A program made the translations under genes and the position numbers. Below are positions 4,401 through 39,940 of a stretch of 64,000 nt of DNA, piece after piece. The stretch is taken from the NCBI GenBank assembly GCA_964342815.1, contig CAYFHS010000012.1:42421-106420 (forward strand), written 5' to 3'. Position 1 is the stretch's first letter. The number at the start of each line of letters is the position of its first letter. The notes under the pieces were generated by a model. It was not told the origin of the DNA, ran no database searches, and was given only the letters and a program-made list of their open reading frames with translations. The stretch comes from an uncultured archaeon. GTDB taxonomy: Archaea > Thermoplasmatota > Penumbrarchaeia > JASLWR01.

Positions 4401-7400
4401 AAGCTTAACAAGGGTCGTCGCCGCTTTTTTGACATAGATCTCTGCCTCGTCCAGAACACCTTTATCCACTAGGAGCTGGCTCATATCCATGAAGGATTTT
4501 TCCTCTTTCATCTCTATCTTGGATACGCCCATCTCCTTGAGATTATCATAAATGATCTTGTTTTTTATGATCATACCGTTTATCTTCGTTTTCAAGTAAT
4601 TGAACCTTGCAGCGGTGATGGTCTTCTTAGCGTTTTCCAGCAGATTGATCGATTTATCATAATCCTCTCTTTTGAATTCTCGTTTACCTTTATCGAACAA
4701 TGAGGAGCCTTCGGATACATCCACTCCGATGTTACGGGCTTCTTCCTGCAATGTTCTGATACTGTCTATGGACAGTAGAATTTCTTGGCGCCTCTTTTCG
4801 AAAGCTGCTTTCTCGATCCCCTTTTGAAACCATTCTATACTAGGTCCGTAGTGTTCTTTGTCAAGCAATTTATCCCCTTTCTGAATATAAACCATGAGAG
4901 GAGAGGTTGCGCCACCCAGTTCTTCGATCTCGGCTATAATATCTTCGAGCAGCCTTTTTGTGGAGATTGCTTTGCGTTTCATGTATTCCCGGCTTCGATC
5001 CCTTACATCGTCCTCGAACTGGACGATACGTGCCAATATCTCGGTTGAAACTTCTTCCTTTACGCCATTGTATAGTTCATTCAATCGGTTAAAATAATCC
5101 GTAAGATCAAAACCTCCTCCGGAGTCCTTTTCTATGAACTCCACCACCCCCTTGCTTCTTGAGAGACGATCCAAGGCGATTTCCAGGTCGTACTCCCTTT
5201 CCCTTTTCATCCCTTCTTTAATTGCCAGCTTACAGTATGCCTCCACCTCGATGAAATTGTTCTTCTTAAATAATTCAACTGCATCACGATAGAGGTCGCT
5301 CATCAGCTCCGTGTCAACGCCTTTGGCTAAAAGACGGTCCAATTCCTCCTTGACGCTGTCCAAAGAAGTTTGGGAATTTCCCAGCTTATGATCGAGCTCA
5401 AGGGAATCCCTTATCTTCTTCACTTTATCTATTATCCGGTATGTCTCATCAAAGATTCCTTTGGAAAGGTTGGAATTCGCACTCACCAGAAGAGTTTCCA
5501 TCTCCATGGTGTCAACCCCCTCTTCGCTTAGGCTACGCTTTTTCTGTTCCAGTTCATCCAAGAATACACGGACCTTACCACGGTGGAACTCGATCTCTAT
5601 CTCCCTGATATCTTTCTGCCTCTTCAATATTGCGGACCTTGCTTCGGAGAAGGAACCTTTGGATATCATCCGCTTTATTTTCAGTAATTTACCATCCATT
5701 CCCGTTACATCGGCACCTCGGTTAGCAAGTTCGAAAAGAGCGTCCTCCAATTCGTATAACTGGGTCAATAAGCGATTGGTCACGAAAAAATCCCTGGCGG
5801 ATTCAGCCTCGGTCCATCCTTTTTTCAAAAGTTCCGACGTGACATTGTATTCCTTCTGCTCAAGGTAATCTGTACTTTTATCAACTATCGAATACAGAGA
5901 AGAAACATCAACATCCTTTTTGGAAAATTTGTCCAGGAGAGCCTTGAATTCACCGATCTCTTTACGATAGAAATCATCCCTGTATGCATGGAATTTTTCA
6001 TTCATCTCATTATCGAGCTTTTCGAGGGTTTCTTTGGCATTATCGAAATCGGCCGCATCCAGCATAACTGCCACCTGGGACAGAACATCTTTTTCTTCTT
6101 TAAGCTCCATACCTTCATTTTCCAGTTCAGCGTGCCGGTCCATAAGAATTTGGCTTTTTTTCTGCAGTGTACCAAGTCTCCTTCTTACCTTTATCTTGCT
6201 AGACAATTCTTCGCCGAGCTCATATGCCTCTTTATACTTCTGTTCAGTGAAATATTCCTTCACGCGGTCCAGTTGTACCCGGAAGGAGGAGATGTCCTGG
6301 CCGACCTCAAGCAATTCGCGAAAGGCGATCTTCGTTTCCGATATGATATCCAAAGACCTTTCCTGGTAATAATATTCTCGCAACCTTGAAGATATCTCCA
6401 AGGCCTGATCCAGATCCTTTGAGGCTGTCGCCATCTCTTTCAATTCAATCTTCTTCTTTGCATCTTCAAGTATCATTTCCAGTTCAGCAGTATCTATGGA
6501 TGCTTCTTTCCACTTACCAATGTCCCTGAAAATCCCGTCATAGGTCTCTTTGAAAACCGAACTCTTAGTAAGTATATAACTGTTCTCCGCCTTCTTTCGT
6601 GCTTCCGTTAGAATGGCCTTGGCCTCTTCATAATTGCCTTTCTTGTGAGCATCGGCCGCGTCTTCCAGTGCACCCTTTACTTCATCAAGCTGGATTCCCT
6701 CGGTTTCAAGCTCATTATACCGATCTTGCATTTCCTTTAATTTTTCAGCGGATTGCCCCCCCAGATATTCCTGTTTCTTCTCCGTAATGGATTCCATTAT
6801 CTTGTTCATAATGGGAGCCAGGTCTCCAAAATCGTCATTTTCGACTTTTGTCTTTGCATCGTTCAGCCGTTCCTCCAATGAACTAATATCCACTCCGCCC
6901 CGCTGAAGCGCTTTGATCAGGGTATGATAGTCGAGTAACGTATCAAGGTACATCTTGCGAAAGAAATCCGTTTTCGTGTTCTTAGCTGAATCGAAAGCAT
7001 CCTTGACTATTTGAAAACCCGCCTCCATATCCTTACCCCGTATCTTGAGATCGGCCAATTGCAAAAGTTTCTCCGCCTTTATTACCTTCAATCCTTTTTC
7101 CTTCAATTCTGATATGATGGAATCAGTATCTCCCTTGATCTTGTCTATCTTCATGAGCAGGTGGGCTCCCCAGGTTTCGTTCAATAATTCTTCCGCGGTC
7201 CTTAATGCTTCATTAGCACTGTTGTAATCTCCACTTTGTAATATACTTCGTCCCTTGTTGAAGGAGAGCCATGCCTTGGAAACATCGACATCCTTCTTCG
7301 CTATTTCCTCAAGGCGTTTTTCGGTCTCGTCAAACTTCTTTTTCGACTCAGTAAGCTTGTGATGACTGATCATTTTTTCGGATAAATTTTTTACCTTTTC

Positions 7401-8777
7401 CGTAAGTTCGTCTATACGCCGGTAATCGTATTCCTTGAAGGCTTTCTGCGCTTCAGCGAGCATGTCCGTTACTTCTTTTAAGGGTAGGCCGAGTATTTTC
7501 AATTTCCTTATATCGACCTGAATTGATGAGATATCGCTGCTTCCCTTCTTGATTCTCATGTTATTTTTTTCCTTGAGAAGTTCGAGAGAGATATTCTCCA
7601 GCATATTCTCGCATTCCAAATATTTTTTCATGGCCGCATTCTGTGCCACACCTGCAAGCTTCGATTTCAACTCATCAAGTTCTAAACCGGACTTCTCCAG
7701 TTGTTCTATCTTCAGGGTATATTCTTCTATCTTTGAAAAAATCTTACCCTTATAGAACTTGTGCTTCACGTCCATAGCCGTATTGATAGCATCGTCCGAT
7801 CTCTCTATTGATTCGTCATATTTTTTTTCTTTGAAGAGGTTCTTTGCCATCCCGAGTTTTTCCAATGGTTCTGTGGACCCCTGAGCCGATTCTCCCATTT
7901 GATCAACAACATATTTGGCCCGGGCTAGTCGCTCCTGGGCTGCCTTGATCTTCACTCTGTCCTTAAGTCGAGAAATAATGATATAGCAGCTCGAAATAAT
8001 GTCCCGGGTGCCCACAATATCTCCGTTATCCAGGGCTTGTTTACCGTTCTGCAACCTTATATTGACCGCTTTTACTCCGGCACCTAATCTTTCAAGTTGT
8101 TCAACCTCGCTCTCAATGGATCCCAGTTCTTCAAGAAGAGACTGCATCTCACCGTATTTACTTTCCTCTGAGCATCTGTTCAATACTTCATATGCCATTT
8201 CTGTAGCCTTATCAAGTTCATCGTTCTCGGCTAATTCCCTACTTTTTTCAAGCATACCTTGCAGCCTGCCATCAGAATCATTAATGAATTTTTTATGGCT
8301 AGCAGTCTCCGCCCTGGTAATCAATCCCATAATCTTTTTCTTATCAATCCGTCTACGAACTTTTACAATACTACTAACACCAATTTCTAGAAATTTATTA
8401 GCTTCATCATAATGTCCCAGGATCAACTCATCCTCGCCTCTCGCAAGATATTCACGTACTTCAGCGACATCAATATTCTGGGAAAATGATCGGATGAAAT
8501 CTTTTATTTCAGCCACCTTGTTCCCAACTATTTGGATGATACCCTCGCTTTTCCTGTGTTCCCCTATTGTACAGGCATCGGTTGCCTTTGCGGTGGCTAA
8601 AGCGACGTTGCCCTTTGAAATCGCGACCCTAGCCTCTCCTAAAAGGTCATTTACTTCAGTGGCTTCGATGGAGAGGCTCTTCAATTCCCGGTACAGCTCT
8701 TCACCTAGCGAAAGCAGCTCCTCAGCTACTGTGACACCTTGACCGGTCCCATTGGTCCGATTGGTTCCAACTCCCAT
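1431..8777 (-). CDS. giant (2448 aa) cytoplasmic all-helical tandem-repeat protein, function unknown
   Basis: Uninterrupted 7.3-kb ORF with an ATG preceded by AAGGAGGG. No signal peptide, TM segment or ATPase motifs. E/K/L/A/D-rich helical composition built from 66-aa repeats. Confidence 0.9.
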   Translation of the reverse strand: MGVGTNRTNGTGQGVTVAEELLSLGEELYRELKSLSIEATEVNDLLGEARVAISKGNVALATAKATDACTIGEHRKSEGIIQIVGNKVAEIKDFIRSFSQNIDVAEVREYLARGEDELILGHYDEANKFLEIGVSSIVKVRRRIDKKKIMGLITRAETASHKKFINDSDGRLQGMLEKSRELAENDELDKATEMAYEVLNRCSEESKYGEMQSLLEELGSIESEVEQLERLGAGVKAVNIRLQNGKQALDNGDIVGTRDIISSCYIIISRLKDRVKIKAAQERLARAKYVVDQMGESAQGSTEPLEKLGMAKNLFKEKKYDESIERSDDAINTAMDVKHKFYKGKIFSKIEEYTLKIEQLEKSGLELDELKSKLAGVAQNAAMKKYLECENMLENISLELLKEKNNMRIKKGSSDISSIQVDIRKLKILGLPLKEVTDMLAEAQKAFKEYDYRRIDELTEKVKNLSEKMISHHKLTESKKKFDETEKRLEEIAKKDVDVSKAWLSFNKGRSILQSGDYNSANEALRTAEELLNETWGAHLLMKIDKIKGDTDSIISELKEKGLKVIKAEKLLQLADLKIRGKDMEAGFQIVKDAFDSAKNTKTDFFRKMYLDTLLDYHTLIKALQRGGVDISSLEERLNDAKTKVENDDFGDLAPIMNKIMESITEKKQEYLGGQSAEKLKEMQDRYNELETEGIQLDEVKGALEDAADAHKKGNYEEAKAILTEARKKAENSYILTKSSVFKETYDGIFRDIGKWKEASIDTAELEMILEDAKKKIELKEMATASKDLDQALEISSRLREYYYQERSLDIISETKIAFRELLEVGQDISSFRVQLDRVKEYFTEQKYKEAYELGEELSSKIKVRRRLGTLQKKSQILMDRHAELENEGMELKEEKDVLSQVAVMLDAADFDNAKETLEKLDNEMNEKFHAYRDDFYRKEIGEFKALLDKFSKKDVDVSSLYSIVDKSTDYLEQKEYNVTSELLKKGWTEAESARDFFVTNRLLTQLYELEDALFELANRGADVTGMDGKLLKIKRMISKGSFSEARSAILKRQKDIREIEIEFHRGKVRVFLDELEQKKRSLSEEGVDTMEMETLLVSANSNLSKGIFDETYRIIDKVKKIRDSLELDHKLGNSQTSLDSVKEELDRLLAKGVDTELMSDLYRDAVELFKKNNFIEVEAYCKLAIKEGMKREREYDLEIALDRLSRSKGVVEFIEKDSGGGFDLTDYFNRLNELYNGVKEEVSTEILARIVQFEDDVRDRSREYMKRKAISTKRLLEDIIAEIEELGGATSPLMVYIQKGDKLLDKEHYGPSIEWFQKGIEKAAFEKRRQEILLSIDSIRTLQEEARNIGVDVSEGSSLFDKGKREFKREDYDKSINLLENAKKTITAARFNYLKTKINGMIIKNKIIYDNLKEMGVSKIEMKEEKSFMDMSQLLVDKGVLDEAEIYVKKAATTLVKLKNRHNLRIVSEELEKTSDICSGIEEQGVEISSSLQLLNELRETLDDRTELPDDEQRSLLDDIRHALHSAREQETTFKLHLLDTNLERNEALLKKYGMEGVDVTEPMALLAEAREMYDGGDTEKGLAKGTECIALAKEKRAQFFKDSANGLLYTAELLMKDIRKLPFDISHLESMMNKAKDNYAEEKHRKCAHQLKSFISACDEMTVMGELQTKIEALRESVSNLPIKKDHFEEEMKKIEGLLIERKFDAANESYEEIIKLFNLKRSEYENNMANEKYQRIKLQIDELAADGIDQDEPKNMMDQGRILIKNGELDKAYKLMEEAVQLAQNIRKQKTADISEAVLSLEDSLIATGERQGYETELMKKLRLLRDDSAIPITEELTQTILSLSKFFKMLEDEETKAMFQKNVKSVRRLLDRVSEYLPEERIREYTMKLDGLPSIGPAVPRSEEDSAFVDFEKIRDLITETIEAEIGRGLEDQKARINRLGGVEKLLKRGIVGVDVYKLYLNIFSDTPGTEWVERLRYVNLLGDQIEKIEQRVTKQNHIDHYLDLSYKVNALKSKQFTPTSALHWLAQGKAALENGGFKEAEKCFIRAEDGANMALKRHEQDLASRFITSAIEKMRLMGLKFSEAKDVQVVLIKAQEAERQRNYSKIQGLCEEAIDLAEKEIDSRRRVKFNEEIRRITNVIQSKARDMDGAVHLKRLDMAGRLFESGMYKFAMNVAKRAEKDARDSYWQIMSEKYLISRQEAERGLEKAEAIDLDISQGTLLMEESRKLFLKEAMALAYDNIREAISVINELLHMNRVRIMQDEATALRKELDIYEEKGAEVLNARRDLEKLLVLLKEGELEKAGEVKNLIINAMGGLEKDIFRDELRRILDNCSAIMEEVEGMRGDTTKIQKNIKKATDYLSGGLLESANELSQACLKELKDQRNTLLEQRAKTVLYATGEIVKGTDNERAQDYFRKARTAYGLERYKEALRLAQESIKHIQE
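1434..8678 (-). repeat. about 37 tandem copies of a 66-residue protein repeat (G-[VIL]-[DE]-[VIL] ... LLxxA ... G-[DN]-[YF]-xx-A ... long helix)
   Basis: I registered the motif by hand at residues 34, 100, 166, 232, 298, 364, 430, 496, 562, 628, 694, 760, 826, 889, 955, 1021, 1087, 1153, ~1221, 1288, 1351, 1417 and 1486. Spacing is exactly 66 in 17 of 22 intervals and 63-69 in the rest. The pattern continues to the C-terminus (...ERYKEALRLAQESIKHIQE). Confidence 0.85.
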
Positions 8778-13115: not shown

Positions 13116-13988
13116 TCAAAGCTCACCTTCGATTCCACACTCCGGACATTTCACAGGTAGTGGATCTTTACCCGTGTCCTCTACATTGAAACTAACCGAG
13201 CATCCGGGACACTCCACTTCGAAAAGTTTCTGGCTAACCTTCTTCTTAAAAGATATTTTACGCATTTCTTTCTCAACTTCCACGTATATATCTTCCGCGG
13301 CTTCCTCGCTGATGTTAAAATGTACCCTTAAAGCCTGCAGTATCTTTTCCTCACTGTCGCTTATGATACCGTCCGATAAGGCACCCCGAAGGGCATCCTT
13401 GTATGCTTCACGATTCTTGGGATCGTTGAATTTCGCCGAAGGAACCTCGAGAGCCCCCACATCGAGGCTTGAGCGCTGGATAACGCTGTCCTTGACATCG
13501 ATACTCCCTCCGGCATAATATTTTTCAACCTGGAACACAACAGTTTGTTTTTCGTCCGGTATCTTTTTTTCCTTTACTGGCTTGGATTTCAGCTCCTCCA
13601 GTCTCCTCCTCACTTCCTCTTCTTTCCGGTAATTATTTTTATAGCTTTTCAATCCCGTAAAGAACATAAGAATCCCAACACCAACGAATAAAAGCGGGAC
13701 TATCCTGAAAAGAAGTGGTATCTTTGCCTTGAACAAGACCGTGGTAATCCCCAGGCTGAGGATTGAAAAAATCACACCCACGATCATGACGCCAATTGCT
13801 TTGGAACGTTCGGCACTAGGAGCACATACTCTGCAGTACGTTTTTAGTGCCGGGGCGGCTTGGTGACCTTGTGACGTGCTTGCTCCACCTACCTGAACCT
13901 CCCTTTTGCAGACCATACAAATCGGCTTATCGCATTTTTCACAAGAAGTGATAGAAGGCTCGTCGGGGTGGAAAGCGCATGGTATCAT
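13116..13988 (-). CDS. membrane protein: N-terminal B-box-type zinc finger, 2-3 TM, TerB/DjlA-like helical segment, C-terminal zinc ribbon
   Basis: 290 aa. CAFHPDEPSITSCEKCDKPICMVC at the N-terminus, hydrophobic stretches IGVMIVGVIFSILSLGITTVLF and IVPLLFVGVGILMFF, then ...ALSDGIISDSEEKILQALRVHFNISEEAAEDIY... and C-terminal CPGC...CPEC. Confidence 0.6.
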   Translation of the reverse strand: MIPCAFHPDEPSITSCEKCDKPICMVCKREVQVGGASTSQGHQAAPALKTYCRVCAPSAERSKAIGVMIVGVIFSILSLGITTVLFKAKIPLLFRIVPLLFVGVGILMFFTGLKSYKNNYRKEEEVRRRLEELKSKPVKEKKIPDEKQTVVFQVEKYYAGGSIDVKDSVIQRSSLDVGALEVPSAKFNDPKNREAYKDALRGALSDGIISDSEEKILQALRVHFNISEEAAEDIYVEVEKEMRKISFKKKVSQKLFEVECPGCSVSFNVEDTGKDPLPVKCPECGIEGEL

Positions 13989-16686: not shown

Positions 16687-17850
16687 ATGGGAAGGTCCTC
16701 CCGTGGAAAAGAGGCAAGAACACATTACCAGATACTAGGTGTTCAGTTCAATGCCACCAAGGCGGAGATCAAAAAAGCTTACCGAAGATTGGCGGAGAAA
16801 TATCATCCAGACCGGACTCGGGACCTACCGGAACACATACGTAAAAAATACGAAAAAGAAATGAAATTGATAAACATGGCTAAAGACGTTGTTCTAAATC
16901 CCACCAGCCGTTCATTTTACAACTACAAACTAGGTTTTTGCGACAGCGTGGAGGTTTTTGAAGAAGAGATCGAGGAAGTAGAACCCTTGTCAGGTGAAGG
17001 TGACCCTGCTGGCTCGCCACACTTTCAAGCCGAGCCAGAAGGCGACATAGAAACGAATGTTTCTATTAGCCCTAATAGAATCTATGATTCTATGTCGGGA
17101 CTCGACTTGTCAGGTAAAGGCGATTCGGATGGTTCCCATTTCATTCCGACGCATCAAGATGCGCCTAAACCCTCGGTTGGAAAGCCAGCTGGATCACAAC
17201 ACAGGACGGGTAGAGACTTGTCAAATGATAAGGGTAACATAGACGGGATCGATAGGTCATATGTTTCTTTCGGAACCAACCCCGAAAGGGAGAACTCTGA
17301 AGAAGAATTATCTTCTGAAGATATAGACGAGGATTACGAAATCGCCGCAGAAGTGGTGGAGTTCTTCAGGGAAGAAAACGAAGGTTTGGAAGAACCCGAA
17401 TTGGTTGCCGAAGTGGTAGATATTATCGATGATTCATCCGATTATACCTCACAAGATATGTACCATGAGGATATTGATCCGATTTCCAACGGTAGTCTGA
17501 ATGATGAAAAAAATGATTCCAATGAACGGGAGATTACAGAGATCAATAATAATTACGAGGAAGCAAACTTAGAAGACAGAATTCCTTTCTGGGATGAAGA
17601 ACCGGTCCGGAAAAGACCAGTTAATGAATTCAAAAAGATCCATCCCCCCCTACCAAAACAAAATAATCCCGATACCGGTAGCCAGAATTTATTTATCAGA
17701 GGAACGGGTTATCACTTGGAGGTACGCCCGGTCAGTCTGTATCAGGACGACAATGTCACAATCGAGGTTACGGCGTCCGGCCTCAAGTACCGGGACCTGA
17801 AGAAGAGAACTCGAAACAGAAAAAAGGGGGATAAAAACCATCACGGATAA
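16687..17850 (+). CDS. J-domain (DnaJ-like) protein with a long acidic disordered region
   Basis: 387 aa. The N-terminal J domain [32 protein letters not shown] contains the HPD motif. There is no G/F or zinc-finger domain. The remainder is E/D/S-rich and ends in a basic tail. Confidence 0.85.
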
Positions 17851-17962: not shown

Positions 17963-20900
17963 GTGTCCTCGATGTTAGAGTTTACCAACAGCTCTCTAAA
18001 AAAGGCCCTACTCGGGTTTGTCGTAGCCCTGCTATTTCTGATACCAATTATAATAGACGCTGAATCTCCGACATCCGGTGGAAAATTGCATGTACATATA
18101 GAAAACGTACAAGAAAATGACCCAATTTCGAATGTAAATGGCGAACCGACCAGCGGCATTACAGGAACCAGGAGTATATTGATCGAGGAGAGTTTCGAGA
18201 GCTACGATAATCTGGACAATACCAGCACCACTGCATTATTGTCCGATGGCAAGGCAATGCTATCGAGAACCCCGGCACCCGATAAAAAGACAACAATAAG
18301 CATTGACCTTGACTGGCTTTCGAATCCTGTCCATACTTATCCCTTTCATCCCAACGCCATGACCTATGATCCAATGATTCCATGTCTGGTTCTATCACTC
18401 CAGGGTCCAAAGGTACTGTACCGTGTAAATCTGGACAATGGAGACAAGCTCGATGAGATTCCAACCATAAGCAACAATAATAGCGGGATTGCGTACAACG
18501 GGGATTATTACTATTACTCTGTGGGTGCTGACTCCGATTCCAGTAAACCTGACGTATATAAATATCAAAAGGGCCAGGATAAGACCGCTGAATTTATTTC
18601 CAGTAAATCCAGCAAGGATGGATATCCCCTTACAGTGGTGGGCAATTATATTTACAGGGGAAAGGGCTATGAAGACGGAAGCAAGGATTGGGGGAAAATA
18701 AACCAGTTAGAAAAGGTGTCTTTGGCGGAACCAGACAAGGTATTGAGCACCTTCCAGCTGGGATTTACGGGGATGACCGATCTCGCTTTCGATGGCAAAT
18801 ACATCTGGGTGCTTGTTAACAGCTCTGATAAAGTCTCTTTATATCAATTTGATACGGATGGGAACAGCATTGGGACCTTCAAGGACTTTTATACTCCGAG
18901 AGCCGGGCTCAAACCATGCGGCCTTGCTTACGTTGATGGTACGGGGGATGAAGAAGATTCCCTGTATGTACTACTATACAAGGAGAGGGGCGAACCCGAT
19001 AACAGCCAATTGTTAAGGGTGAAGATGACAAGTCGTTATCAGTTAGAAGACACGATAATTTCGAAAACCTATGATGATTTCGAGGAACCATTATATGCAG
19101 TAAAATTCGAAGCTGTAACAACGACAACATCCTCAACCACTCTAGAATATTTCTATTCCAAAGAGAATGGAATAAATTGGGAGGAGGCAAATCTGAACGA
19201 ATGGATCGATTTCGAAGAACCGGTGAACAAACTTTCCTATAAGATAATATTGGGTACACGAAATCACGAAAAAACTCCTACATTATCCAACCTGAAAGTG
19301 CTGAAGAACGAGGTAGAAACTCCCGTTGCCAACTCCCCCACACATAATTTTTGGGCCAACACAGCGAACGTGAATTTCAAATGGACCTTCAATGATCCAA
19401 ACGAAGGTGACGCACAGGCGGCATTCGAGATTGAATTAGCTGAAAGTGACACGTTCAGCACGATTTACCGGGAACAGACCGTAACAAGCTTGGAAAGAAG
19501 CCATACTTTCACCGAAAATTTAAAAGACGGATTATTTTACTGGAGAGTTCGAACAAAGGACGATCACAATCAATGGAGCGCCTTTTCCGACCCATTCCTC
19601 GTCAATGTAAATTGGATATCTCCAGTGGGAAGTGTGATCATTAACAATGACAACCTTACCACCGATGACCGGAAAGTAGAATTGACCCTCGCTGCAGATG
19701 GTACCTACCCAGGCGTCATAGAGATGTATATCAGCAATAACCCCGCGGCTCCCAAAGACGGATCAGCATGGGAAATTTACGTGACAAGTTTCAACTGGAC
19801 CTTGGATAAGGAACTTGGTGAGAAAACAGTCCATGTCTGGTACCGTGACGAAAACGATCTGAAAAGTACTGTTGCAAAGGCCACCATCACTCTAGAAGAA
19901 AAAGCCGTCGATGTCGATACGGGAATTCTGGGTTGGGGAAAGATCGGAGCGGATTCAAAGGGGTATGGGGGCGTTGATATTTTTTACATCGTTCTCATCT
20001 TGGTTTTAATCGTTATCGTAGTAGTAGTGATCTTTGTAATAAAGAACAGAGGTGGAGGAGATTATTACGACGATGACTATGACGATGATGATGAAGAGGA
20101 GGAAGATGATCTGGATGTTCTGGAACAGATCCGTCGGAAGCGGAAGAAGGAAATGGGTGCGGAAATAAAGGAAGAGAAAGAGGACGTGATAGAGGAGGAA
20201 GAAGAGGAGGAAGAGAAATTCGAGAAAAAAGCCCACGGCCGCTATACCGACCTTTCAACGGAAGACGATTTTTCCATGGGCACCAGTCGTTACGGTGTTC
20301 CAGAAGAAGAAGAAAAAAAAGAAGAAAAGGAACTCAGCGGTCCGTATTCCATGAAATCATTGGAGGACGATTTCTCATTGGAACCCCAGAGATACGGGGG
20401 CCCTCCTTCCTTGGATGATTTCATGAAGAATATCGAGGACATGAGTGAAGAACCTCAAGCAGAAGAGAAAAAGTCCGCATCCATGCCCAAGGAAAAAGAA
20501 AAGACGCTCTCAAAAGAGGAAGCAAAGAAAGCCAGGGAACAGATAGAAATGCTGAAAAAACGCCGCCTGGACATTCTGGATTCATTGAGGTCAACTACAG
20601 ACAGCCGCAGACAGAAAGCACTTGAGCAGCAAATGGACGATATTCAGCAGCTGATTATTGGATTGAGAAAACATCTTCCCGCTGACGAAGAAGTGGACGA
20701 AGTCACTGAAGAGGAAGCCCCACCCACGGTAGAGGCGGAAAAGATTGAGGTAATGGATGTACCCAGCGATATAAAGGACCAGTTGAAAGAGGGAGCGAGA
20801 CGAGATAAAAAACGCGGGGTTGGCTTTGGATTTCTGGACCAAGAAGTAGCAGACACGGAAGAAAAAACCTCGCAACAACAACCGATATCTCCGGAAGTCC

Positions 20901-22069
20901 AAGCGAGGTTGGCACAGATACTCCAACAGTTACAGGTACTTCAACAGCAGCAGCTTGCGGTGCAGAACCAGATGCGGCAAACATCCGAACCCGGACAGCA
21001 GAGATTATTGAATCAACAGGTACAGGTGATGGCACAACAACAGCAGGCATTGCAGCAGGAAGCTCAAAGACTTCAACAACAGTCACAGCAAAAGTCACCC
21101 ACGGAGGAAAAGACCGCAATATCACCCGAAGTGGAAGCTAAACTGGCACAGATTCTTCAACAGCTGCAGGTCCTGGCTCAACAGAAAATGGCAGTACAGA
21201 ACCAGATGCGGCAGACTGCGGATCCTCAGATGCAGCAGACACTTAACCAGCAGTACCAGACCATAACGCAGCAACAACAGACATTGCAGCAGCAGGCGCA
21301 GTTACTTCAACAACAGGCTGCAGCGCTTCAACCTGAAGCAGCAGCACCACAGCCCGAACCGGCGGTAGCACCTTCGGACGTGGAGGCAAAGGCAAGACAG
21401 ATACTTCAGCAACTTCAGGCACTTGCTCAACAGCAGATAGCGATACAGAATCAGATGCGGCAGACCACAGACCCGGCGCAAAAACTGACATTGGCTCAGC
21501 AGGATCAAGCTTGCAAACAGCAGATGGAAGCTCTGAAAGCACAGGCTGCAGCGCTTCATCAGCAGTCTCAGTACCAACCACCGGCTCCTCCCCAGGAAGA
21601 GGCGCCGCCACCTGCTCCGACTCCCGAGATGGAGGCAAAGTTGAGACAGATACTAGGACAGCTACAGGCAATTCAGGAGCAGCAGGCAGTGGTACAAAAT
21701 CAACTTTCACAGACACAAGACCCGGGACAACAACAGGCTTTAAGTTCACATTATCAGTCACTTCAGCAGCAAGCTATGGCATTGAAACAGCAAGCGGAAG
21801 CAGTACAACAACAGGCAGCGGGAACCCCTGCACCACCAGCCCAAGCACCGGCTCCGCAACCTGCACCACAGAATGCACAGGCACAATATAACGCCGTGGC
21901 CCAACAGTACCAGACCCTGCAGCAGCAGAGTGCCGCCATCCAGCAGCAGCTTCAGCAGGCCAGGGATCCCGGGCAGCAGCAGGCCCTTATGCAGCAGTAT
22001 CAGGCCGTACAACAGCAGCTCGGCCCACTGGGCCAGCAGCTTCAACAGCTGCAGGCTGCACAACGATAG
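17963..22069 (+). CDS. bitopic giant membrane protein: extracellular beta-propeller-like and FN3-like domains, one TM, and a 674-aa cytoplasmic acidic + Q-rich repeat tail
   Basis: 1368 aa. The track start is GTG 17963, but ATG 17972 (MLEF...) has a better GAAGGTG spacer. Signal/anchor LLGFVVALLFLIPIII; mid-protein TM IVLILVLIVIVVVVIFVI (about nt 19973-20041); downstream DYYDDDYDDDDEEEEDD followed by the Q-rich repeats. Confidence 0.85.
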   Translation: MSSMLEFTNSSLKKALLGFVVALLFLIPIIIDAESPTSGGKLHVHIENVQENDPISNVNGEPTSGITGTRSILIEESFESYDNLDNTSTTALLSDGKAMLSRTPAPDKKTTISIDLDWLSNPVHTYPFHPNAMTYDPMIPCLVLSLQGPKVLYRVNLDNGDKLDEIPTISNNNSGIAYNGDYYYYSVGADSDSSKPDVYKYQKGQDKTAEFISSKSSKDGYPLTVVGNYIYRGKGYEDGSKDWGKINQLEKVSLAEPDKVLSTFQLGFTGMTDLAFDGKYIWVLVNSSDKVSLYQFDTDGNSIGTFKDFYTPRAGLKPCGLAYVDGTGDEEDSLYVLLYKERGEPDNSQLLRVKMTSRYQLEDTIISKTYDDFEEPLYAVKFEAVTTTTSSTTLEYFYSKENGINWEEANLNEWIDFEEPVNKLSYKIILGTRNHEKTPTLSNLKVLKNEVETPVANSPTHNFWANTANVNFKWTFNDPNEGDAQAAFEIELAESDTFSTIYREQTVTSLERSHTFTENLKDGLFYWRVRTKDDHNQWSAFSDPFLVNVNWISPVGSVIINNDNLTTDDRKVELTLAADGTYPGVIEMYISNNPAAPKDGSAWEIYVTSFNWTLDKELGEKTVHVWYRDENDLKSTVAKATITLEEKAVDVDTGILGWGKIGADSKGYGGVDIFYIVLILVLIVIVVVVIFVIKNRGGGDYYDDDYDDDDEEEEDDLDVLEQIRRKRKKEMGAEIKEEKEDVIEEEEEEEEKFEKKAHGRYTDLSTEDDFSMGTSRYGVPEEEEKKEEKELSGPYSMKSLEDDFSLEPQRYGGPPSLDDFMKNIEDMSEEPQAEEKKSASMPKEKEKTLSKEEAKKAREQIEMLKKRRLDILDSLRSTTDSRRQKALEQQMDDIQQLIIGLRKHLPADEEVDEVTEEEAPPTVEAEKIEVMDVPSDIKDQLKEGARRDKKRGVGFGFLDQEVADTEEKTSQQQPISPEVQARLAQILQQLQVLQQQQLAVQNQMRQTSEPGQQRLLNQQVQVMAQQQQALQQEAQRLQQQSQQKSPTEEKTAISPEVEAKLAQILQQLQVLAQQKMAVQNQMRQTADPQMQQTLNQQYQTITQQQQTLQQQAQLLQQQAAALQPEAAAPQPEPAVAPSDVEAKARQILQQLQALAQQQIAIQNQMRQTTDPAQKLTLAQQDQACKQQMEALKAQAAALHQQSQYQPPAPPQEEAPPPAPTPEMEAKLRQILGQLQAIQEQQAVVQNQLSQTQDPGQQQALSSHYQSLQQQAMALKQQAEAVQQQAAGTPAPPAQAPAPQPAPQNAQAQYNAVAQQYQTLQQQSAAIQQQLQQARDPGQQQALMQQYQAVQQQLGPLGQQLQQLQAAQR
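20520..22066 (+). repeat. 6 copies of a helix-turn-helix hairpin repeat of about 80 aa (one ancestral copy, then five Q-rich copies) separated by P/A/Q linkers
   Basis: The copies align on ...QILQQLQ[VA]L[AQ]QQ...[AV]QNQMRQT[STA][DE]P.QQ..L.QQ[YV]Q...QQQQ.LQQ.... A non-Q-rich copy (AREQIEMLKKRRLDILDSLRSTTDSRRQKALEQQMDDIQQLI) precedes them. Linkers include QPEAAAPQPEPAVAP and PPAPPQEEAPPPAPTP. Confidence 0.8.
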
Positions 22070-22131: not shown

Positions 22132-23082
22132 ATGAAGGATAATAAAAAGGTCTTCAGAAAGACCGAATCCGGTCTGAACTGCCCGAACTGCAGCCAGTTC
22201 ATGGGCCCGTTCAAAGTTTGCCCATACTGCAGGACAAAGGTAAAGAACCGCCTGGATATCAGGACCTTCAAGGCTATTAGCGTTGTTGTTGCCGTAGTGG
22301 GGATCGCCTTCTTATTGGTCTGGGCCAACATGAAAGATCGGGAAAAGTGGGATATTGAGGATCTGACCAAACGCCAGAATTACGCGTACCTAGAATTCAA
22401 CGGTACCGTGGTGGAAGATTCTCGTTATTATGTTTCATTCGGAGCGGAAGGGGAAAGACTCCCCGGTTCCCTAAGTTTCCGTTTTGACGATGGAACCGGG
22501 ATAATGGAGGTAAAAGCATACCAGGAGGTTGCCAAGGACCTTGTCAAAGAAAAGATGATCCCTGTTAGAGGCGACAGCATAAAAATTTCCGGCCCCGTCA
22601 ACTATCGCGGCAACGACATGACGCTGCTGCTGCAGGATTGGACAGCCCTCGAGATCGAGAGACCCGATCCCGATATTACCGTAACTATCGCAGACATTTA
22701 TGAGAATCCGGATGAAGATGCCTTTCCATTTGGAAAGATGATAAAAGTATCCGGTCTTTTAACTGGAGCGGTATTTGTGGCAGAAGATCTTGAAACGGAT
22801 TTTGCTGACAAGGTCGGTAATATGAAAATTCTGATAAAGGACGAGAATGACAACACAGCCATTATTCATGTGGCCCAATCTCTCTACTCACCATATTATC
22901 TCTATAACGAAGAAGTTGGCGCTGGAGAATATAACTTATATGAAGTGGGGACTGAACTCATAACGGTTACCGGTCATCTCGTCTGGGACAAGTATGCGCC
23001 CAACGAGGTTACGGGCGGGAAGGGGAACTGGGTTATTGAACCACAGAGACTGGAAGACGTACATCTGGAGGTGGTTTCATAG
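22132..23082 (+). CDS. Zn-ribbon / single-TM / extracellular tandem OB-fold-like protein (2 OB-like modules)
   Basis: 316 aa. GGGGG RBS. N-terminal CPNC...CPYC, TM ISVVVAVVGIAFLLVWA, then segments with an OB (tRNA_anti-like) pattern: YAYLEFNGTVVED...LSFRFDDGTGIMEVKAY...IPVRGDSIKISGPVNY and GKMIKVSGLLTG...MKILIKDENDNTAIIHV...ELITVTGHLVW. Confidence 0.65.
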   Translation: MKDNKKVFRKTESGLNCPNCSQFMGPFKVCPYCRTKVKNRLDIRTFKAISVVVAVVGIAFLLVWANMKDREKWDIEDLTKRQNYAYLEFNGTVVEDSRYYVSFGAEGERLPGSLSFRFDDGTGIMEVKAYQEVAKDLVKEKMIPVRGDSIKISGPVNYRGNDMTLLLQDWTALEIERPDPDITVTIADIYENPDEDAFPFGKMIKVSGLLTGAVFVAEDLETDFADKVGNMKILIKDENDNTAIIHVAQSLYSPYYLYNEEVGAGEYNLYEVGTELITVTGHLVWDKYAPNEVTGGKGNWVIEPQRLEDVHLEVVS

Positions 23083-23129: not shown

Positions 23130-24380
23130 GTGCTGGCCGCAGGCAAGAAACAATGTCCCGCTTGCGGTAAATACGTTGACAAGGAACGCCGTATCTGCCC
23201 CGAGTGTACCGCACATTTCAGCTACCGCATAAAGGAATCTACCCTGGTGAAATTCTCATCTATATTTGTTGTAATAGGCGTCGTATTCTTTCTGATAGCA
23301 GCATATTGGCCAACAGGTATAACCGACGTGGAAGACATGGACCGATATGACAATTTCTCAATCATGACTTTCAAGGGAAAGGTGGTTGAAGCACCCGACT
23401 ACGACGTTTATCCTTACCAGGAATACGGTGAGATGAAATTAAATATAAGCGACGAGACAGGTTATTTACAAGTACTATGCAACAGCGGGGTGACCGAGAG
23501 TCTGATAAAGAGCGGAAAGATACCAGCCGTTGGCGACACCGTGGAAGTGACAGGGCGAGTTCTTTTCATTGAGTCCGTGTCCCCCGGGGCATGGAAAAAC
23601 ATCACTCTTTCAAATCAAGGCCTCAAATTATATCTTAAAGGGGAAGCAGAACTAAAGGGGCGGGAAGATGCGTTCAAACGGGTGGAGGTGATGTACGAGG
23701 ATAACATCAAGATATTTCCCAACAAATACACGAAAAAGTCGATTTCCAATATTGCCGGAAAACCCAAAGAAACCTTTGAAATTGGCACAAAAGTTGTGGT
23801 GAGCGGAAAAGTTGTTTCTGTTTTAACAGATTACCCCACTGCTTATCAGTTCCATATCGGTGACGAAGATAATGCAAAAAATCTCATGGTATATGTTCCA
23901 AAGGGTCTCGTTCAACTATCTGGCATTGAATTAGAATCGGAAGAAGATATCATTTTCAATATAAAACCGGGTTCGGATGTTACAATAATCGGTGCTTTGA
24001 TATATTATGACAATAAAGAGATATGGGAATTGGTACCAACATCTGTGGGGACGAAAATCAAAGTGGGTGGAAATCCGTGTTTCGAAGTTACTCAAGAGGA
24101 TTCTTCGTTTACATTTACCGTGGACAAAATAATGTCCAACAAGGGATTGTACGAGAATGCACGCGTAGGATTGAATAATGTCAAAATAGTAAATAAAAAC
24201 TATAAATTGTATGTTAAAGACCAGGGTGGTACGGATGAAATTGTTCTTTTCAGCTATGGAAGTTTAGGAGAATATAATACAGGTGACATCGTTAACGTCG
24301 AAGGGCAATTTATATATTATGAAGGAAAAAAGATATGGGAAATTAAACTAAATGCCGATGATATCAGGGAGGTGGTCTGA
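23130..24380 (+). CDS. paralogous Zn-ribbon / single-TM / extracellular OB-fold-like protein (3 OB-like modules)
   Basis: 416 aa with a GTG start. CPACGKYVDKERRICPEC, TM FSSIFVVIGVVFFLIAAYW, then three units such as MTFKGKVVEAP...MKLNISDETGYLQVLC...PAVGDTVEVTGRVLF, KVVVSGKVVSV...FHIGDEDNAKNLMVYV...SDVTIIGALIYY and ...LYVKDQGGTDEIVLFSY...GDIVNVEGQFIYY. Confidence 0.65.
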   Translation: MLAAGKKQCPACGKYVDKERRICPECTAHFSYRIKESTLVKFSSIFVVIGVVFFLIAAYWPTGITDVEDMDRYDNFSIMTFKGKVVEAPDYDVYPYQEYGEMKLNISDETGYLQVLCNSGVTESLIKSGKIPAVGDTVEVTGRVLFIESVSPGAWKNITLSNQGLKLYLKGEAELKGREDAFKRVEVMYEDNIKIFPNKYTKKSISNIAGKPKETFEIGTKVVVSGKVVSVLTDYPTAYQFHIGDEDNAKNLMVYVPKGLVQLSGIELESEEDIIFNIKPGSDVTIIGALIYYDNKEIWELVPTSVGTKIKVGGNPCFEVTQEDSSFTFTVDKIMSNKGLYENARVGLNNVKIVNKNYKLYVKDQGGTDEIVLFSYGSLGEYNTGDIVNVEGQFIYYEGKKIWEIKLNADDIREVV

Positions 24381-26815: not shown

Positions 26816-29800
26816 ATGAATGCCGAGCCGAATATTATTTATAAAAGGGCCTTTACAGCCATCGTATCCGTCGTTCTGCTGACAAGCGCTTTACTGAGCT
26901 TGCTTCCATTGGCAGGATCATCACCCGATAGAGAAAGCAGATCGGTACTGGAAATAGTTATCAGCGAGGTCGCGCCTCACGGTGGCGGTTTTCAGGGTGA
27001 GGACTGGCTCGAACTTCTTGTGGTCTCGGGCAGCGGGGACATCTCGGATTACGTGGTGACGAGTTTCGACAGCCAGGATGATGACGAGAGCTTCGCGAAT
27101 TCCACAGTTACGGTGAATGAGGGCGAACGCCTCTTGGTACATTACAACGGTAGCTTAGCGGACGAAACGGATATAACGGGAGACACTAACGGGAACGGAT
27201 ACATCGATCTGTACATTGCTTCGTCCGAGCTCTCACGTACTCATGAACAGGCCGCTCTCTATACAGCTTCAGATTATTCCGTTATGGTGGACGCCGTATG
27301 CTGGAGCAAAGGGGATATCACCGCAAGCGAGGCGGCAGATGCCCAGAACCTTGTTGACCTGGGAATGTGGCCCTCGAACTCTGCATCAGACATGGTTTAC
27401 TCGGGTGACATAGACAAAGGGATAAGCATAGCAAGAAAGGAGGGGAGGAATGACACCGACAAGCAAAGTGATTGGTACGTGGAACCGAAAAGTTCTCCAG
27501 GGGCCGAAAACAAATTTTTTAACTTTACTGGAGAGGTGCTAATAACCGGGGTATACCTTTCCGGATCCCCCAAGGCACTTACAATAAAGGTGATCACCGG
27601 AGGTGGTGATGTTTCCTGCCTGTCCGTATCCGATCTCGATCGTGCCCCAATCTTTCTCGCCACCGAACCGGTCAGTCTCACTCAAGGTGATGAGCTTATA
27701 TTATATTTCGGAACGGGAACGAATGAAACAGACTCCATAGGGGATATAAATCAGAACAATCTTTGGGAACTGTTTATCGATCCAAAGATTTCTCCCACAG
27801 GTACCACGGATGCAGTTGCACTCTTCAACGGACTGGACGTAATGGACGCTGTTGCATGGTGTACCGATGGAAAGCTCAGTTCAGGTGAAATATCCGACCT
27901 GGAGTTCCTAATTTCCCAAAACGCATGGGACGGAAATACCAGTGAACACTGTGTGAATATCTCCTTGATGGGCTCACGAAATGAGCTTGTTCGATCAGAA
28001 CTAAACGACACGAATACCAGTGCCGACTGGACCATCAGCGGTGAGATAAACAAAGAGATCGATCTCAAGAAATTCGACCTTGAGACCTTCCGGAACGTGG
28101 ATTCTGTTACATGTGGTGTTTCCCCCGATTCGAGCTTTTGGTTATTGGCCGGGTTAATTGAGAATGCAACGGAAAGTATCCATATCGAGGTTTACCAGTT
28201 CGATAATTTTAAAATCGCTGAGAAAGTATTTGCCGCTCAAGAAAGGGGCGTTGAGGTGAAGGTATTGCTGGAGGGAGCGCCGGTTGCCGGTATACCTGAC
28301 ATGGAAAAATATGTTATGAAAGTAATAACTGATAAGGGAGGGGAGGTCCGTTATATAATCACGGATTCGGATGCTGGTATAAAGGAGAGGTACACAAACG
28401 TTCACTCTAAATTCATGGTTGTTGATGGGGAGAAATCTTTCATTACTTCCGAGAATTTCAGGGATGACGCTATTCCCTACTACGGTACCAAGGGAAACAG
28501 AGGATGGTCGGTTCTCATCGAATCGGTTGAGGTTGCGGAATACTTTGAAGGGGTTTTCTCATATGATTTCACACCCAGCAGCCCAGATACCTTTCCATTT
28601 ACCGAGAACGATCCTGTTTACGGGGGTCCCCCGGATGGCTTCAACCCGTCATCCAGCCCAAAAAGCGGAAAACACGAAAAGGTTTTCCACGAACAAAAAT
28701 TCACGGGTAATATCTATGTAACTCCTATCCTGTGCCCGGACCATACCGGTGATTTGAAGGCCATTTTACCACTTATTGAAAGCGCAAAAGATTATATCTG
28801 GGTAGAGCAACACAGCGTGGGAGTGATATGGGACGACAGTAATAATAAAATTGATAATCAATATTTGGATGCACTTCACCAGGCGGCAAGGCGGGGCGTG
28901 GAGGTGAGGGTTATCCTCGATTCCAAGTTTGAGTTCGATAATAAACATGAGGAGATCGTCAATAATTTAAATGAGCTTGCCAAGACAGAAAGACTAAACA
29001 TGGTAGCAAAGTTATCCTCCAATAAACGAATCGAAGTGGAAAAGGTTCATAATAAAGGAATCATAGTGGACGGTATGAAAGTACTGGTATCGTCTATCAA
29101 CTGGGCCACCAATTCCATCTATAACAACCGCGAGGCCGGGGTCATTATAGAGAACGAAGAGGTTGCCGATTATTATTCAAAGGCATTCCTTCTGGATTGG
29201 GGTGAGAACAATACAGGGGTCATAGAGGGAATCGTCACGAACCCGGATGGCAACTATATCTCAGGGGCCGATGTGAAGATTGAAGGCACGGGCTTCAATA
29301 CGATAACAGAATCGGATGGTAGTTTCATCATAACCGGCGTTCCGGTGGGAACCTATATTTTGAAGGTCACTGCCGTGGGATTCGAAGAGCATTCCCAGGG
29401 TGTCACGGTGGAATTATGGGTGCCAGCCAATGTCACATGCATCATAGGTTCCTGGGGAGCTATTGAGGGAATTGTAAAAGATATCAATGGAAACCCAATG
29501 AAAGGAGCGAAGGTGATAATCGACGATACCGATATAGTCGTTTACACAGACGATAAAGGCCGTTATCTTATAGAGAAAGCCCCGGTTGGCAGTTATTATC
29601 TGAACATAACAATGAAAAAATACCGGAATCTTCTCACCCAGGTTGAAGTGGAGATGGGTAAGATTTATCAGGCAGAGTCGACCATTACTAAGGAAAGCTC
29701 AACCGGGACCGATGGAGAAGATTCCAATAAACCACCCCTTTATCTTCTGGTAATTCTAGGAGTTATCCTTGTGCTGGTATTGGTTATTTTTTCAGCGATT

Positions 29801-29902
29801 GTACTAAACGCAAAAAAAGTAAGCAAATTGGAAAAGGGAAAGAAAGTAACCCGCATCAGCGGAGATCAGCATCCCTTTGACGATAAGATCGAAAAGGAAT
29901 AA
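26816..29902 (+). CDS. secreted, TM-anchored LTD-LTD-PLD(HKD)-PLD(HKD)-CarboxypepD_reg x2 hydrolase (nuclease or phospholipase D superfamily)
   Basis: 1028 aa. Signal-like FTAIVSVVLLTSALLSLLPLAG. Two lamin-tail-like domains (LEIVISEVAP...EDWLELLVVSG... and VLITGVYLSG...). Two HKD motifs, VHSKFMVVDGEKSFITSENF (His codon 28403-28405) and VHNKGIIVDGMKVLVSSINW (His codon 29048-29050). Two units such as GVIEGIVTNPDGNYISGADVKIEG...TYILKV. C-terminal TM plus a basic tail. Confidence 0.85.
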   Translation: MNAEPNIIYKRAFTAIVSVVLLTSALLSLLPLAGSSPDRESRSVLEIVISEVAPHGGGFQGEDWLELLVVSGSGDISDYVVTSFDSQDDDESFANSTVTVNEGERLLVHYNGSLADETDITGDTNGNGYIDLYIASSELSRTHEQAALYTASDYSVMVDAVCWSKGDITASEAADAQNLVDLGMWPSNSASDMVYSGDIDKGISIARKEGRNDTDKQSDWYVEPKSSPGAENKFFNFTGEVLITGVYLSGSPKALTIKVITGGGDVSCLSVSDLDRAPIFLATEPVSLTQGDELILYFGTGTNETDSIGDINQNNLWELFIDPKISPTGTTDAVALFNGLDVMDAVAWCTDGKLSSGEISDLEFLISQNAWDGNTSEHCVNISLMGSRNELVRSELNDTNTSADWTISGEINKEIDLKKFDLETFRNVDSVTCGVSPDSSFWLLAGLIENATESIHIEVYQFDNFKIAEKVFAAQERGVEVKVLLEGAPVAGIPDMEKYVMKVITDKGGEVRYIITDSDAGIKERYTNVHSKFMVVDGEKSFITSENFRDDAIPYYGTKGNRGWSVLIESVEVAEYFEGVFSYDFTPSSPDTFPFTENDPVYGGPPDGFNPSSSPKSGKHEKVFHEQKFTGNIYVTPILCPDHTGDLKAILPLIESAKDYIWVEQHSVGVIWDDSNNKIDNQYLDALHQAARRGVEVRVILDSKFEFDNKHEEIVNNLNELAKTERLNMVAKLSSNKRIEVEKVHNKGIIVDGMKVLVSSINWATNSIYNNREAGVIIENEEVADYYSKAFLLDWGENNTGVIEGIVTNPDGNYISGADVKIEGTGFNTITESDGSFIITGVPVGTYILKVTAVGFEEHSQGVTVELWVPANVTCIIGSWGAIEGIVKDINGNPMKGAKVIIDDTDIVVYTDDKGRYLIEKAPVGSYYLNITMKKYRNLLTQVEVEMGKIYQAESTITKESSTGTDGEDSNKPPLYLLVILGVILVLVLVIFSAIVLNAKKVSKLEKGKKVTRISGDQHPFDDKIEKE

Positions 29903-39683: not shown

Positions 39684-39940
39684 ATGTACACCCAAAAAAT
39701 CTGGAAATGGTAGAGACCTATGAATACATGTTACAATGTTGCTGCTGTTTATCTACTATTATCAGACAATATTTCGATTCCAGTAATACAATCGGTATAT
39801 AAAATATCTGGTATATTATATATTAATTGTTGAACAAATTCTAAATCCATATCCCTTTTATTTTCTCGTTCATTATATACTTCAAAATTTTAGGGAAAGT
39901 GGATTTCAATGATGGGCCAATTTTTCAATTCAGCATTGCG

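Follow-up and report, generated by a model that had tools for sequence, protein, structure and literature searches.

A Gln-coated array of predicted antiparallel hairpins in the long tail of an archaeal surface protein

In a 64,000-nucleotide stretch of the genome of an uncultured archaeon of the Thermoplasmatota (contig CAYFHS010000012.1; hereafter the window), an earlier note drew attention to positions 20520..22066 as a run of Gln-rich helical repeats. This segment lies in frame within the open reading frame (ORF) 17963..22069 (+), the product of which, we infer, is a type-I membrane protein with a cytoplasmic tail of 675 amino acids (aa). The C-terminal 400 aa would form a string of antiparallel coiled-coil hairpins, each made of two ~30-residue helices with an Asp-Pro capping turn and connected to the next by a flexible Pro/Ala/Gln linker, and the array would lie in the cytoplasm, beneath the β-propeller/FN3 ectodomain of a surface protein from a marine member of the Thermoplasmatota. 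In the reading that we favour, an older charged hairpin kept its hydrophobic a/d core as its exposed b, c, e, f and g positions went from Glu/Lys/Arg to Gln, and purifying selection holds the Gln-coated state. We regard this structural and evolutionary part as highly probable. A clustering or adaptor function of the tail is a more tentative proposal, with odds somewhat below even, and to the reading as a whole, a folded Gln-surfaced hairpin array for clustering or docking, we assign a probability of about 0.5. What is new appears to be a rare 68-aa hairpin repeat, for which charged, intermediate and Gln-coated states are all observable, in a very long archaeal receptor-like tail.

Five Gln-rich units (U1-U5) start at aa 977, 1055, 1138, 1221 and 1303, corresponding to a period of 78–84 aa for units of 66–68 aa. 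Aligned with the 14 full-length Gln-rich units of the related proteins P0002-P0004, they form a gapless alignment of 19 units over 68 columns, from which the last unit of P0003, cut off by the end of its contig, was excluded. On in-register comparison with BLOSUM62, 10/10 within-protein unit pairs scored above 5000 composition-preserving shuffles (z 6.3–11.7, identity 38–68%), which illustrates that the repeat is no artefact of Gln-richness. The turn column is an invariant [DE]-P, mostly with T ahead of it, and Pro/Ala/Gln/Glu-rich linkers of 10, 16, 14 and 14 aa separate U1 to U5. Five units are certain, and a sixth (U0), located further upstream, is probable.

In the AlphaFold2 model of the tail, each of the five units consists of two helices, of ~30 and ~32 residues, with a 3-residue turn between them and a predicted local distance difference test (pLDDT) of 70–90. 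The linkers have a pLDDT <50 and the predicted template modelling score (pTM) is 0.25, values that describe beads on a string with no fixed arrangement between units. Hydrophobic residues occupy columns 7, 10, 14, 17, 24 and 28 and columns 40, 44, 47, 54, 58 and 61, a canonical 3-4 spacing in both helices, with the invariant [DE]-P at columns 33-34 acting as helix N-cap. Columns 25, 45 and 50 always hold Gln, and in family units Gln makes up 51% of the non-core and 7% of the core positions. Heptad hydrophobics therefore fall within predicted helices and Gln is exposed, which is the pattern of a Gln-rich coiled coil, yet by its sequence the tail belongs to no curated family. Pfam and NCBIfam scans of the whole protein, all units and U0 gave nothing above curated thresholds. 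The generic Pfam matches to the units (the FapA C-terminus, Seryl_tRNA_N and ABC_tran_CTD) are all antiparallel coiled-coil hairpins and are accompanied by sub-threshold matches to EAD9 and SOAR. Among PDB sequences, the unit profile best matches designed single-chain antiparallel coiled coils with a D-P loop (E ~0.1). These (sc-apCC; PDB 8qaf, 9tll and 9tls) share the order helix, D-P loop, helix and the heptad cores, but are synthetic, and at E ~0.1–1 the analogy is one of geometry only. Sequence, family and fold searches found no parent fold more specific than a generic antiparallel coiled-coil hairpin. Judged by the model, the tail resembles an ordered module for interactions more than a disordered prion domain; in place of the disordered, hydrophobic-poor low complexity of a prion-like domain there are helices with a pLDDT of 70–90 and an a/d core that is 88% hydrophobic.

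The content of Gln is 31–44% per 68-aa unit and reaches 45–50% in 40-aa windows only. Across the last 395 aa Gln amounts to 33%, against 2.4% in 21 other ORFs of the window, and a proteome-wide Gln bias was rejected on this ground. From U0 to U5 the values run 11, 43, 38, 31, 32 and 44% with no monotonic drift, and in the ortholog P0004 Gln rises steadily along the units from 18% to 36%. In orthologs with a complete C-terminus the charge drops toward that end, the last unit being just 5–6% charged. The tail uses 42 CAA and 93 CAG codons with a longest Gln run of 4, and Tandem Repeats Finder reported no DNA repeat in 20520..22066; a CAG/polyQ expansion tract is ruled out by these observations. 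The earlier note had proposed six ~80-aa helical hairpins that drift from ordinary to ~40–50% Gln between Pro/Ala/Gln linkers, each of two helices joined at a conserved T-x-[DE]-P turn, and had argued against a simple CAG expansion. The hairpin architecture holds in the model and the alignment, five of the six units are secure, and the codon argument is strengthened by the orthologs (see below). The sixth unit is much weaker, the higher Gln values apply to 40-aa windows only, the drift is seen in P0004 and is no steady trend here, and the linkers are as described between U1 and U5, U0 and U1 being parted instead by an acidic segment.

Composition is also what would favour a prion or amyloid reading, in which the Gln tail switches to a self-templating β-aggregate or drives liquid condensation, so that the receptor acquires a state that is epigenetic or phase-separating. 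Over aa 956-1170 and 1238-1368 the count of Q/N per 80 aa is at least 30, with a maximum of 34; the Q/N-rich criterion of Michelitsch and Weissman from 2000 is reportedly at least 30 Q/N in 80 residues. The remainder of the composition argues otherwise, as Asn (2%), Gly (1.8%), Ser (3%) and Tyr (1.5%) are scarce in the region, and Leu/Ile/Val/Met together make up ~19% (Leu 10%) and Ala 16%. In addition, proline-rich linkers break the array every 68 aa, no Gln run exceeds 4, and the hairpins are predicted to be ordered around a conserved hydrophobic heptad core.

U0 scores 15 bits against the unit profile (i-E 5e-4 among window ORFs, HMMER), and hhalign against the units returns P = 0.006, yet a probability of just 6%. 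Its shuffle z is 4.4–6.2 against the five units of the window and 2.8 against U1 of P0004, always at one offset. It is modelled as helix-turn-helix with a pLDDT >90 (values across U0 and the five units span 70–93) and with the same helix lengths and short turn as the five units, its core columns are 86% hydrophobic in the hidden Markov model (HMM) register, and the U0 turn of P0008, E-K-D-P-R-K-Q-T-A-L, stands in register with Q-T-x-D-P-G-Q-Q-Q-A-L of other units. U0 is therefore a probable divergent sixth copy of the repeat. The U0 profile had no match among PDB sequences, and the unit HMM missed U0 of P0004 and P0007, although the U0 region of P0004 still aligns. U0 begins 125 aa ahead of U1, and between the two lies no Pro/Ala/Gln linker but a 69-aa acidic segment with an extra helix (positions 87-102 of the tail model, the segment having a pLDDT <50 elsewhere).

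The comparison of core and surface columns is a strong indicator of how the Gln-rich state arose. Core columns are hydrophobic at a fraction of 0.88 in the Gln-rich units, 0.86 in U0, 0.88 in archaeal intermediates and 0.72 in bacterial hairpins. In non-core columns the fractions of Asp/Glu/Lys/Arg (DEKR) and Gln are 0.56 and 0.13 in U0, 0.49 and 0.08 in the bacterial hairpins, 0.29 and 0.33 in archaeal intermediates, and 0.12 and 0.51 in the family. A conserved core together with this graded shift from DEKR to Gln indicates a takeover confined to the solvent-exposed surface. Between the window gene and its 74%-identity ortholog (locus L006), dN/dS (the ratio of nonsynonymous to synonymous substitution rates, here at dS ~1.2) is higher in the ectodomain (0.15) than in the Gln tail (0.09) or the remaining tail segments (0.08–0.11). 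In the same pair CAA and CAG differ at 34/125 conserved Gln columns, and the low tail dN/dS with this codon turnover at conserved Gln shows Gln to be selected at the protein level. The view that composition has taken over a pre-existing fold, as the earlier note put it, is thus borne out by the core and non-core columns, the mixed codons and the turnover of Gln codons. Position-specific conservation at a dN/dS of 0.09 likewise points to a defined fold and speaks against a domain kept for its composition only, as the prion reading would have it. By gapless identity, the last units of the five orthologs compared (P0001, P0002, P0004, P0007 and P0008) form a similarity cluster of their own; the first units of P0001, P0002 and P0008 cluster together, and among the units of P0007 the first is the best match to U1. 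The middle units reflect lineage-specific duplications, with 5 or 6 units among the orthologs, and the array is old with some turnover of units.

The topology rests on several features of the protein, the parts of which are a signal peptide, a β-propeller/FN3 ectodomain, one transmembrane (TM) helix and the tail. A Kyte-Doolittle scan (19-aa window, score >=1.6) finds just two hydrophobic segments, signal-like aa 9-38 and the TM helix at aa 673-693. A KK-hydrophobic-IDA signal is present at the N-terminus and Lys/Arg follow the second segment (TM2) directly, and N-x-S/T sequons number 5 in the ectodomain and 0 in the tail. Two hydrophobic segments, a signal peptide, Lys/Arg after the TM helix and an all-β, sequon-bearing region in between most simply place the tail in the cytoplasm, as the earlier note had it, and relatives that carry the hairpin module fused to zinc ribbons were counted toward the same location. 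A tail of 675 aa is exceptional here, since those of four further type-I surface proteins encoded in the window measure just ~25–60 aa. As for the start of the gene, an ATG at 17972, three codons into the listed ORF, is an alternative start that gives the database form (P0001, 1365 aa). The ectodomain at aa 69-662 is modelled by AlphaFold2 as all-β with a pLDDT of 72 and resembles the β-propeller and FN3 ectodomains of the ROS1/Sevenless receptors (Foldseek, E down to 2.6e-13). The propeller alone is similar to 5-bladed glutaminyl-cyclase folds (target-normalised TM-score 0.62–0.65, Foldseek). The top structural matches of the ectodomain also include domains of Bacteroides hybrid two-component sensors, and a Pfam match to Ig_Rha78A_N is borderline. 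Between the TM helix and U0, aa 694-851 match no Pfam family and contain three short DDF motifs (RYTDLSTEDDFSMGTSRYG, GPYSMKSLEDDFSLEPQRYGG and PPSLDDFMKNIEDM). The DDF, RYG, SLDDFM and NIEDM residues of this region are invariant even in a 40%-identity ortholog, and the DDF motifs resemble linear binding motifs.

A search of the 19-unit profile against 1.84 billion representative proteins gave just 23 matches at E <=1e-3, which fall into three groups; the hairpin module is rare, real, conserved and unannotated. The family proper comprises P0001, P0004, P0007 and P0008 with the close relatives P0002 and P0003. Its members share the ectodomain, TM helix, DDF region, U0 and 5-6 units, and a new hairpin-repeat family is thereby recognizable, in which at least five tandem copies of a 68-aa unit, built on a heptad core and an unvarying [DE]-P turn, follow propeller/FN3, TM helix and acidic DDF region. 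The window protein was found on Tara Oceans marine metagenome contigs, P0002 is recorded under the name "Candidatus Thermoplasmatota archaeon", and locus scans returned two loci on genome contigs (by GTDB, a Thermoplasmatota metagenome-assembled genome (MAG) and an uncultured archaeon MAG) and one on JGI metagenome contigs. In the second group, P0009 (PLD and FN3), P0016, P0017 (FN3) and P0025 (FN3) carry 1-2 units behind a large ectodomain of FN3 or PLD type, a TM helix and a cluster of basic residues, and units also occur in the small proteins P0010, P0014, P0018 and P0023. Gln in these other archaeal-type unit-bearing proteins is 13–38%. P0017 shares its MAG with the ortholog P0004, and judged from sequence the module recurs on the putative cytoplasmic tails of unrelated Thermoplasmatota surface proteins. 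The contigs with P0009, P0010 and P0014 are short, so that their gene context is uninformative. P0009 (locus L008) is a PLDc_2 and FN3 surface protein with two Gln-rich hairpin units on its tail.

The third group is bacterial. Charged [ST]-x-D-P hairpins, 2-4 per protein and with poly-proline between them, follow the last TM helix in BlaR1/M56-family proteins (P0012, P0020, P0022 and P0027, with the fragments P0013, P0019, P0021 and P0026). Their Gln content is 3–10%, DEKR 33–46%, and the profile matches them at E 4e-7 to 9e-4 against the 1.84e9 proteins. They resemble the archaeal units in hairpin length, [ST]-x-D-P turn, heptad core columns and Pro-rich linkers between repeats, but differ in their Lys/Glu-rich surface (DEKR 0.49, Q 0.08) and in being probably periplasmic. 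This likeness may be convergent, Asp-Pro being a generic helix N-cap. The hairpin and poly-proline tails of these proteins look like an unannotated repeat architecture in their own right. A separate weak match to the unit profile (E 4e-4) is P0024, a protein of 2884 aa with dozens of helix-[ST]-x-D-P-helix repeats and a tape-measure or fibre-like appearance.

Among known systems, the closest in kind are the Gln-rich coiled coils that mediate protein association in eukaryotes, such as the MED15 prion-like domain (PrLD; PMC7997880, PMC8386614, PMC3378862), which share with the archaeal tail the heptad helices, the exposed Gln and a proposed role in association. The archaeal tail differs in its discrete 68-aa antiparallel hairpins with an Asp-Pro turn, in the 5-6 repeats with proline linkers and in a maximal Gln run of 4. 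It is also membrane-tethered and cytoplasmic, whereas in eukaryotes most examples are transcription regulators of the nucleus in which a single parallel coiled coil overlaps polyQ. In eukaryotic prion-like domains, conversion to amyloid can start from such coiled coils (PMC7997880, PMC8386614), which is a point for the prion reading, as is the existence of archaeal candidate prion domains, some of them amyloid-forming (10.1101/2020.07.20.212902). Surveyed with PLAAC, 69% of archaeal proteomes contained candidate prion domains, with 'Integral component of membrane' as the dominant Gene Ontology term among the carriers (Zajkowski et al., bioRxiv 10.1101/2020.07.20.212902). The domains of that survey are likewise Q/N-rich and mostly in membrane proteins, but they are defined by composition and presumed disorder, with the experimental positives noted for P-Q with Tyr/Phe, and the tail studied here is a structured repeat with a hydrophobic heptad core. 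The earlier note had spoken of prion-like domains on the cytoplasmic side of a surface receptor, an arrangement that it considered undescribed in archaea. The first label fits the Q/N composition and not the predicted ordered helices, heptad core and proline linkers, and the second statement was too strong, since candidate prion domains have already been catalogued in archaeal membrane proteins (10.1101/2020.07.20.212902). Our literature searches returned no prior description of the present architecture in archaea.

Pfam EAD9 (PF19962), the effector-associated domain 9 of vWA-MoxR/VMAP conflict systems, is like the units a short all-helical module (~62 aa), though bacterial and not Gln-rich. 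It is matched across nearly its full profile by 13/19 units, all below the gathering score; against the 25-bit cutoff the best unit, U3, attains 23.9 bits (E 3.6e-5) and the whole protein 17.1 bits. No VMAP, vWA or MoxR gene was found among the neighbours, nor did the unit HMM reveal a second domain copy in an adjacent gene or in any window ORF other than 17963..22069. EAD9 membership was rejected, as no unit reaches 25 bits and the genomic context of that family is lacking. The earlier comparison of the linkers with those of TonB, ZipA and FtsK is one of composition only: all are Pro/Ala/Gln/Glu-rich and predicted to be disordered or extended, but the linkers here are short (10-16 aa) and alternate with folded units.

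As to function, replacement of e/g and outer Glu/Lys by Gln would strip the hairpins of charge-based specificity and repulsion and leave a hydrogen-bonding surface. Each hairpin could then act as an uncharged 'sticker' that packs on hairpins of the same chain, of neighbouring copies or of other module-bearing surface proteins, and five or six stickers on spacers would constitute a multivalent array for receptor clustering or docking beneath the membrane. This proposal matches the behaviour of eukaryotic Gln-rich coiled coils and the logic of EAD-type homotypic adaptors, which occur on several different proteins in conflict-system context (PMC7159879). Several observations weigh against it. The tail model is a monomer model of aa 849-1368 built from a 4-sequence alignment, the packing between hairpins in it is of low confidence (pTM 0.25), Foldseek of the tail model against the PDB found nothing at E <0.5, and Gln-rich sequence is often drawn as helices by AlphaFold. 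Known family members number six, too few for a covariation test. The charged bacterial look-alikes follow the last TM helix of BlaR1/M56 proteins and are by BlaR1 topology periplasmic, and their hairpin and polyproline design is more likely a stalk. Synteny was rejected as functional evidence, the whole 20-kb neighbourhood being colinear.

Two alternatives are each unlikely and to a similar extent. In one, the tail would serve passively as a spacer or tether: stiff, polyproline-like linkers would string the hairpins into a long, semi-flexible stalk or brush that sets a distance or excludes volume under the membrane, with Gln as just a neutral, soluble surface. The beads-on-a-string model with its disordered Pro/Ala linkers is consistent with this, as are the hairpin/poly-Pro arrays of bacterial BlaR1/M56 proteins, where, as in TonB, Pro-rich spacers are typical, and the variation in unit number (5 or 6) with lineage-wise duplication of middle units. 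A spacer should, however, tolerate change, yet Gln never varies at columns 25, 45 and 50 and the ectodomain evolves faster than the tail; the last unit retains its own identity across the orthologs compared, and the module as a single copy on other tails and in small proteins cannot act as a spacer. In the other alternative, the tail would dock a single specific partner in the cytoplasm in place of associating with itself, candidates being a cytoskeletal component, a chaperone component or zinc-ribbon modules. Here the invariant Gln positions could make a binding face. A single unit is followed by a conserved CxxC...CxxC zinc ribbon at the C-terminus of P0014, P0017 and P0025, two downstream genes open with cytoplasmic zinc ribbons and ORF 13116..13988 (-) ends in the same ribbon type, and a J-domain protein is the conserved upstream neighbour. 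The fusion evidence amounts to three proteins, however, the synteny reflects global colinearity with no specific linkage, and the partner is a candidate only. A bolder extension of the sticker proposal, that the Gln-surfaced hairpin is a lineage-specific homotypic sticker, common to several surface proteins of marine Thermoplasmatota, whose multivalent arrays nucleate a membrane-attached condensate or lattice co-clustering receptors, possibly with a dedicated J-domain chaperone next door, is speculative and somewhat less likely still. The prion version is the least likely of the readings and quite improbable, given that the predicted fold is ordered, that proline interrupts the array and that conservation is tied to particular positions.

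The gene order around the array protein is J-domain protein, this gene, two Zn-ribbon/TM/OB proteins, TctA, YdjM and a PLD surface protein. Loci L001 and L006 are colinear with the region of the window gene, and the neighbourhood (DnaJ upstream, Zn-ribbon/OB downstream) is colinear in the locus of the 40%-identity ortholog, as is everything within ±10 kb. The J-domain (DnaJ) protein at 16687..17850 (+), which has a long acidic low-complexity tail, lies 113 bp upstream on the same strand and is also present in L001; a chaperone gene beside a Gln-rich protein is suggestive, but the region is colinear throughout. Directly downstream, 22132..23082 and 23130..24380 (+) encode a paralogous pair that is kept in L001; each protein combines a zinc ribbon at the N-terminus with a single TM helix and an ectodomain of OB-fold (tRNA_anti-codon-like) type. 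The ribbon that ends P0014, P0017 and P0025 after their single hairpin unit has the pattern hydrophobic-x-C-x-x-C ... P-x-x-hydrophobic-x-C-x-x-C-G-x-x-G-x-L, and 13116..13988 (-), which ends in this ribbon type, encodes a B-box protein with two TM helices; a link between hairpin unit and zinc ribbon is possible. Elsewhere in the window, 26816..29902 (+) encodes a PLDc_2 and CarboxypepD_reg surface protein with a short tail. Three very large ORFs, 1431..8777 (-), 33930..39695 (-) and 59857..63732 (-), encode 2448, 1921 and 1291 aa; two of these products are type-I surface proteins with short tails, and the one of 2448 aa is helical and TPR/HEAT-like with no signal peptide apparent. The features of the array gene are collected in Table 1.

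Table 1. Features of the gene for the hairpin-array surface protein, in window coordinates.
Feature	Position	Strand	Details
Whole gene	17963..22069	+	1368 aa, GTG start (ORF list)
N-terminal signal peptide or anchor	17963..18061	+	aa 1-33; KK, hydrophobic core, IDA/ES
Ectodomain	18062..19978	+	aa 34-672; β-propeller, then β-sandwich and FN3/Ig-like domains
Transmembrane helix	19979..20041	+	aa 673-693, K-N-R next; hydropathy scan, sequence
Juxtamembrane acidic region	20042..20515	+	aa 694-851; poly-Asp/Glu, RRKRKK cluster, three conserved DDF motifs
U0, charged hairpin (probable sixth unit)	20516..20683	+	aa 852-907; 11% Gln, ~43% DEKR
Acidic spacer	20684..20890	+	aa 908-976; one short helix (VPSDIKDQLKEGARRDKK), G-F-G-F-L-D motif
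U1, Gln-rich hairpin	20891..21094	+	aa 977-1044; 43% Gln
Linker 1, SPTEEKTAIS	21095..21124	+	pLDDT <50
U2, Gln-rich hairpin	21125..21328	+	aa 1055-1122; 38% Gln
Linker 2, QPEAAAPQPEPAVAP	21329..21373	+	pLDDT <50
U3, Gln-rich hairpin	21374..21577	+	aa 1138-1205; 31% Gln; best, sub-threshold EAD9 match
Linker 3, Pro/Ala/Gln/Glu-rich	21578..21622	+	pLDDT <50
U4, Gln-rich hairpin	21623..21826	+	aa 1221-1288; 32% Gln
Linker 4, PAPPAQAPAPQPAP	21827..21868	+	pLDDT <50
U5, C-terminal Gln-rich hairpin	21869..22066	+	aa 1303-1368; 44% Gln, 5% charged

Should the array serve as a spacer only, it would be merely a lineage-specific repeat family of unusual composition. If the condensate of stickers were true, it would be a prokaryotic counterpart of the clustering of eukaryotic receptors by multivalent tails, built by recoating a charged hairpin with Gln. 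Work on Gln-rich coiled coils has centred almost wholly on eukaryotes, and it is debated there what part they play in interaction, condensation or amyloid formation. The present case is compact and evolutionarily clean: one hairpin is seen charged, intermediate and Gln-coated around an unchanged core, so that what surface Gln contributes can be told apart from what the fold contributes. Next to nothing has been established about how uncultured marine Thermoplasmatota link their surface to the cell interior, and the present analysis flags an unannotated, putatively cytoplasmic tail module that is common to surface proteins of these archaea.

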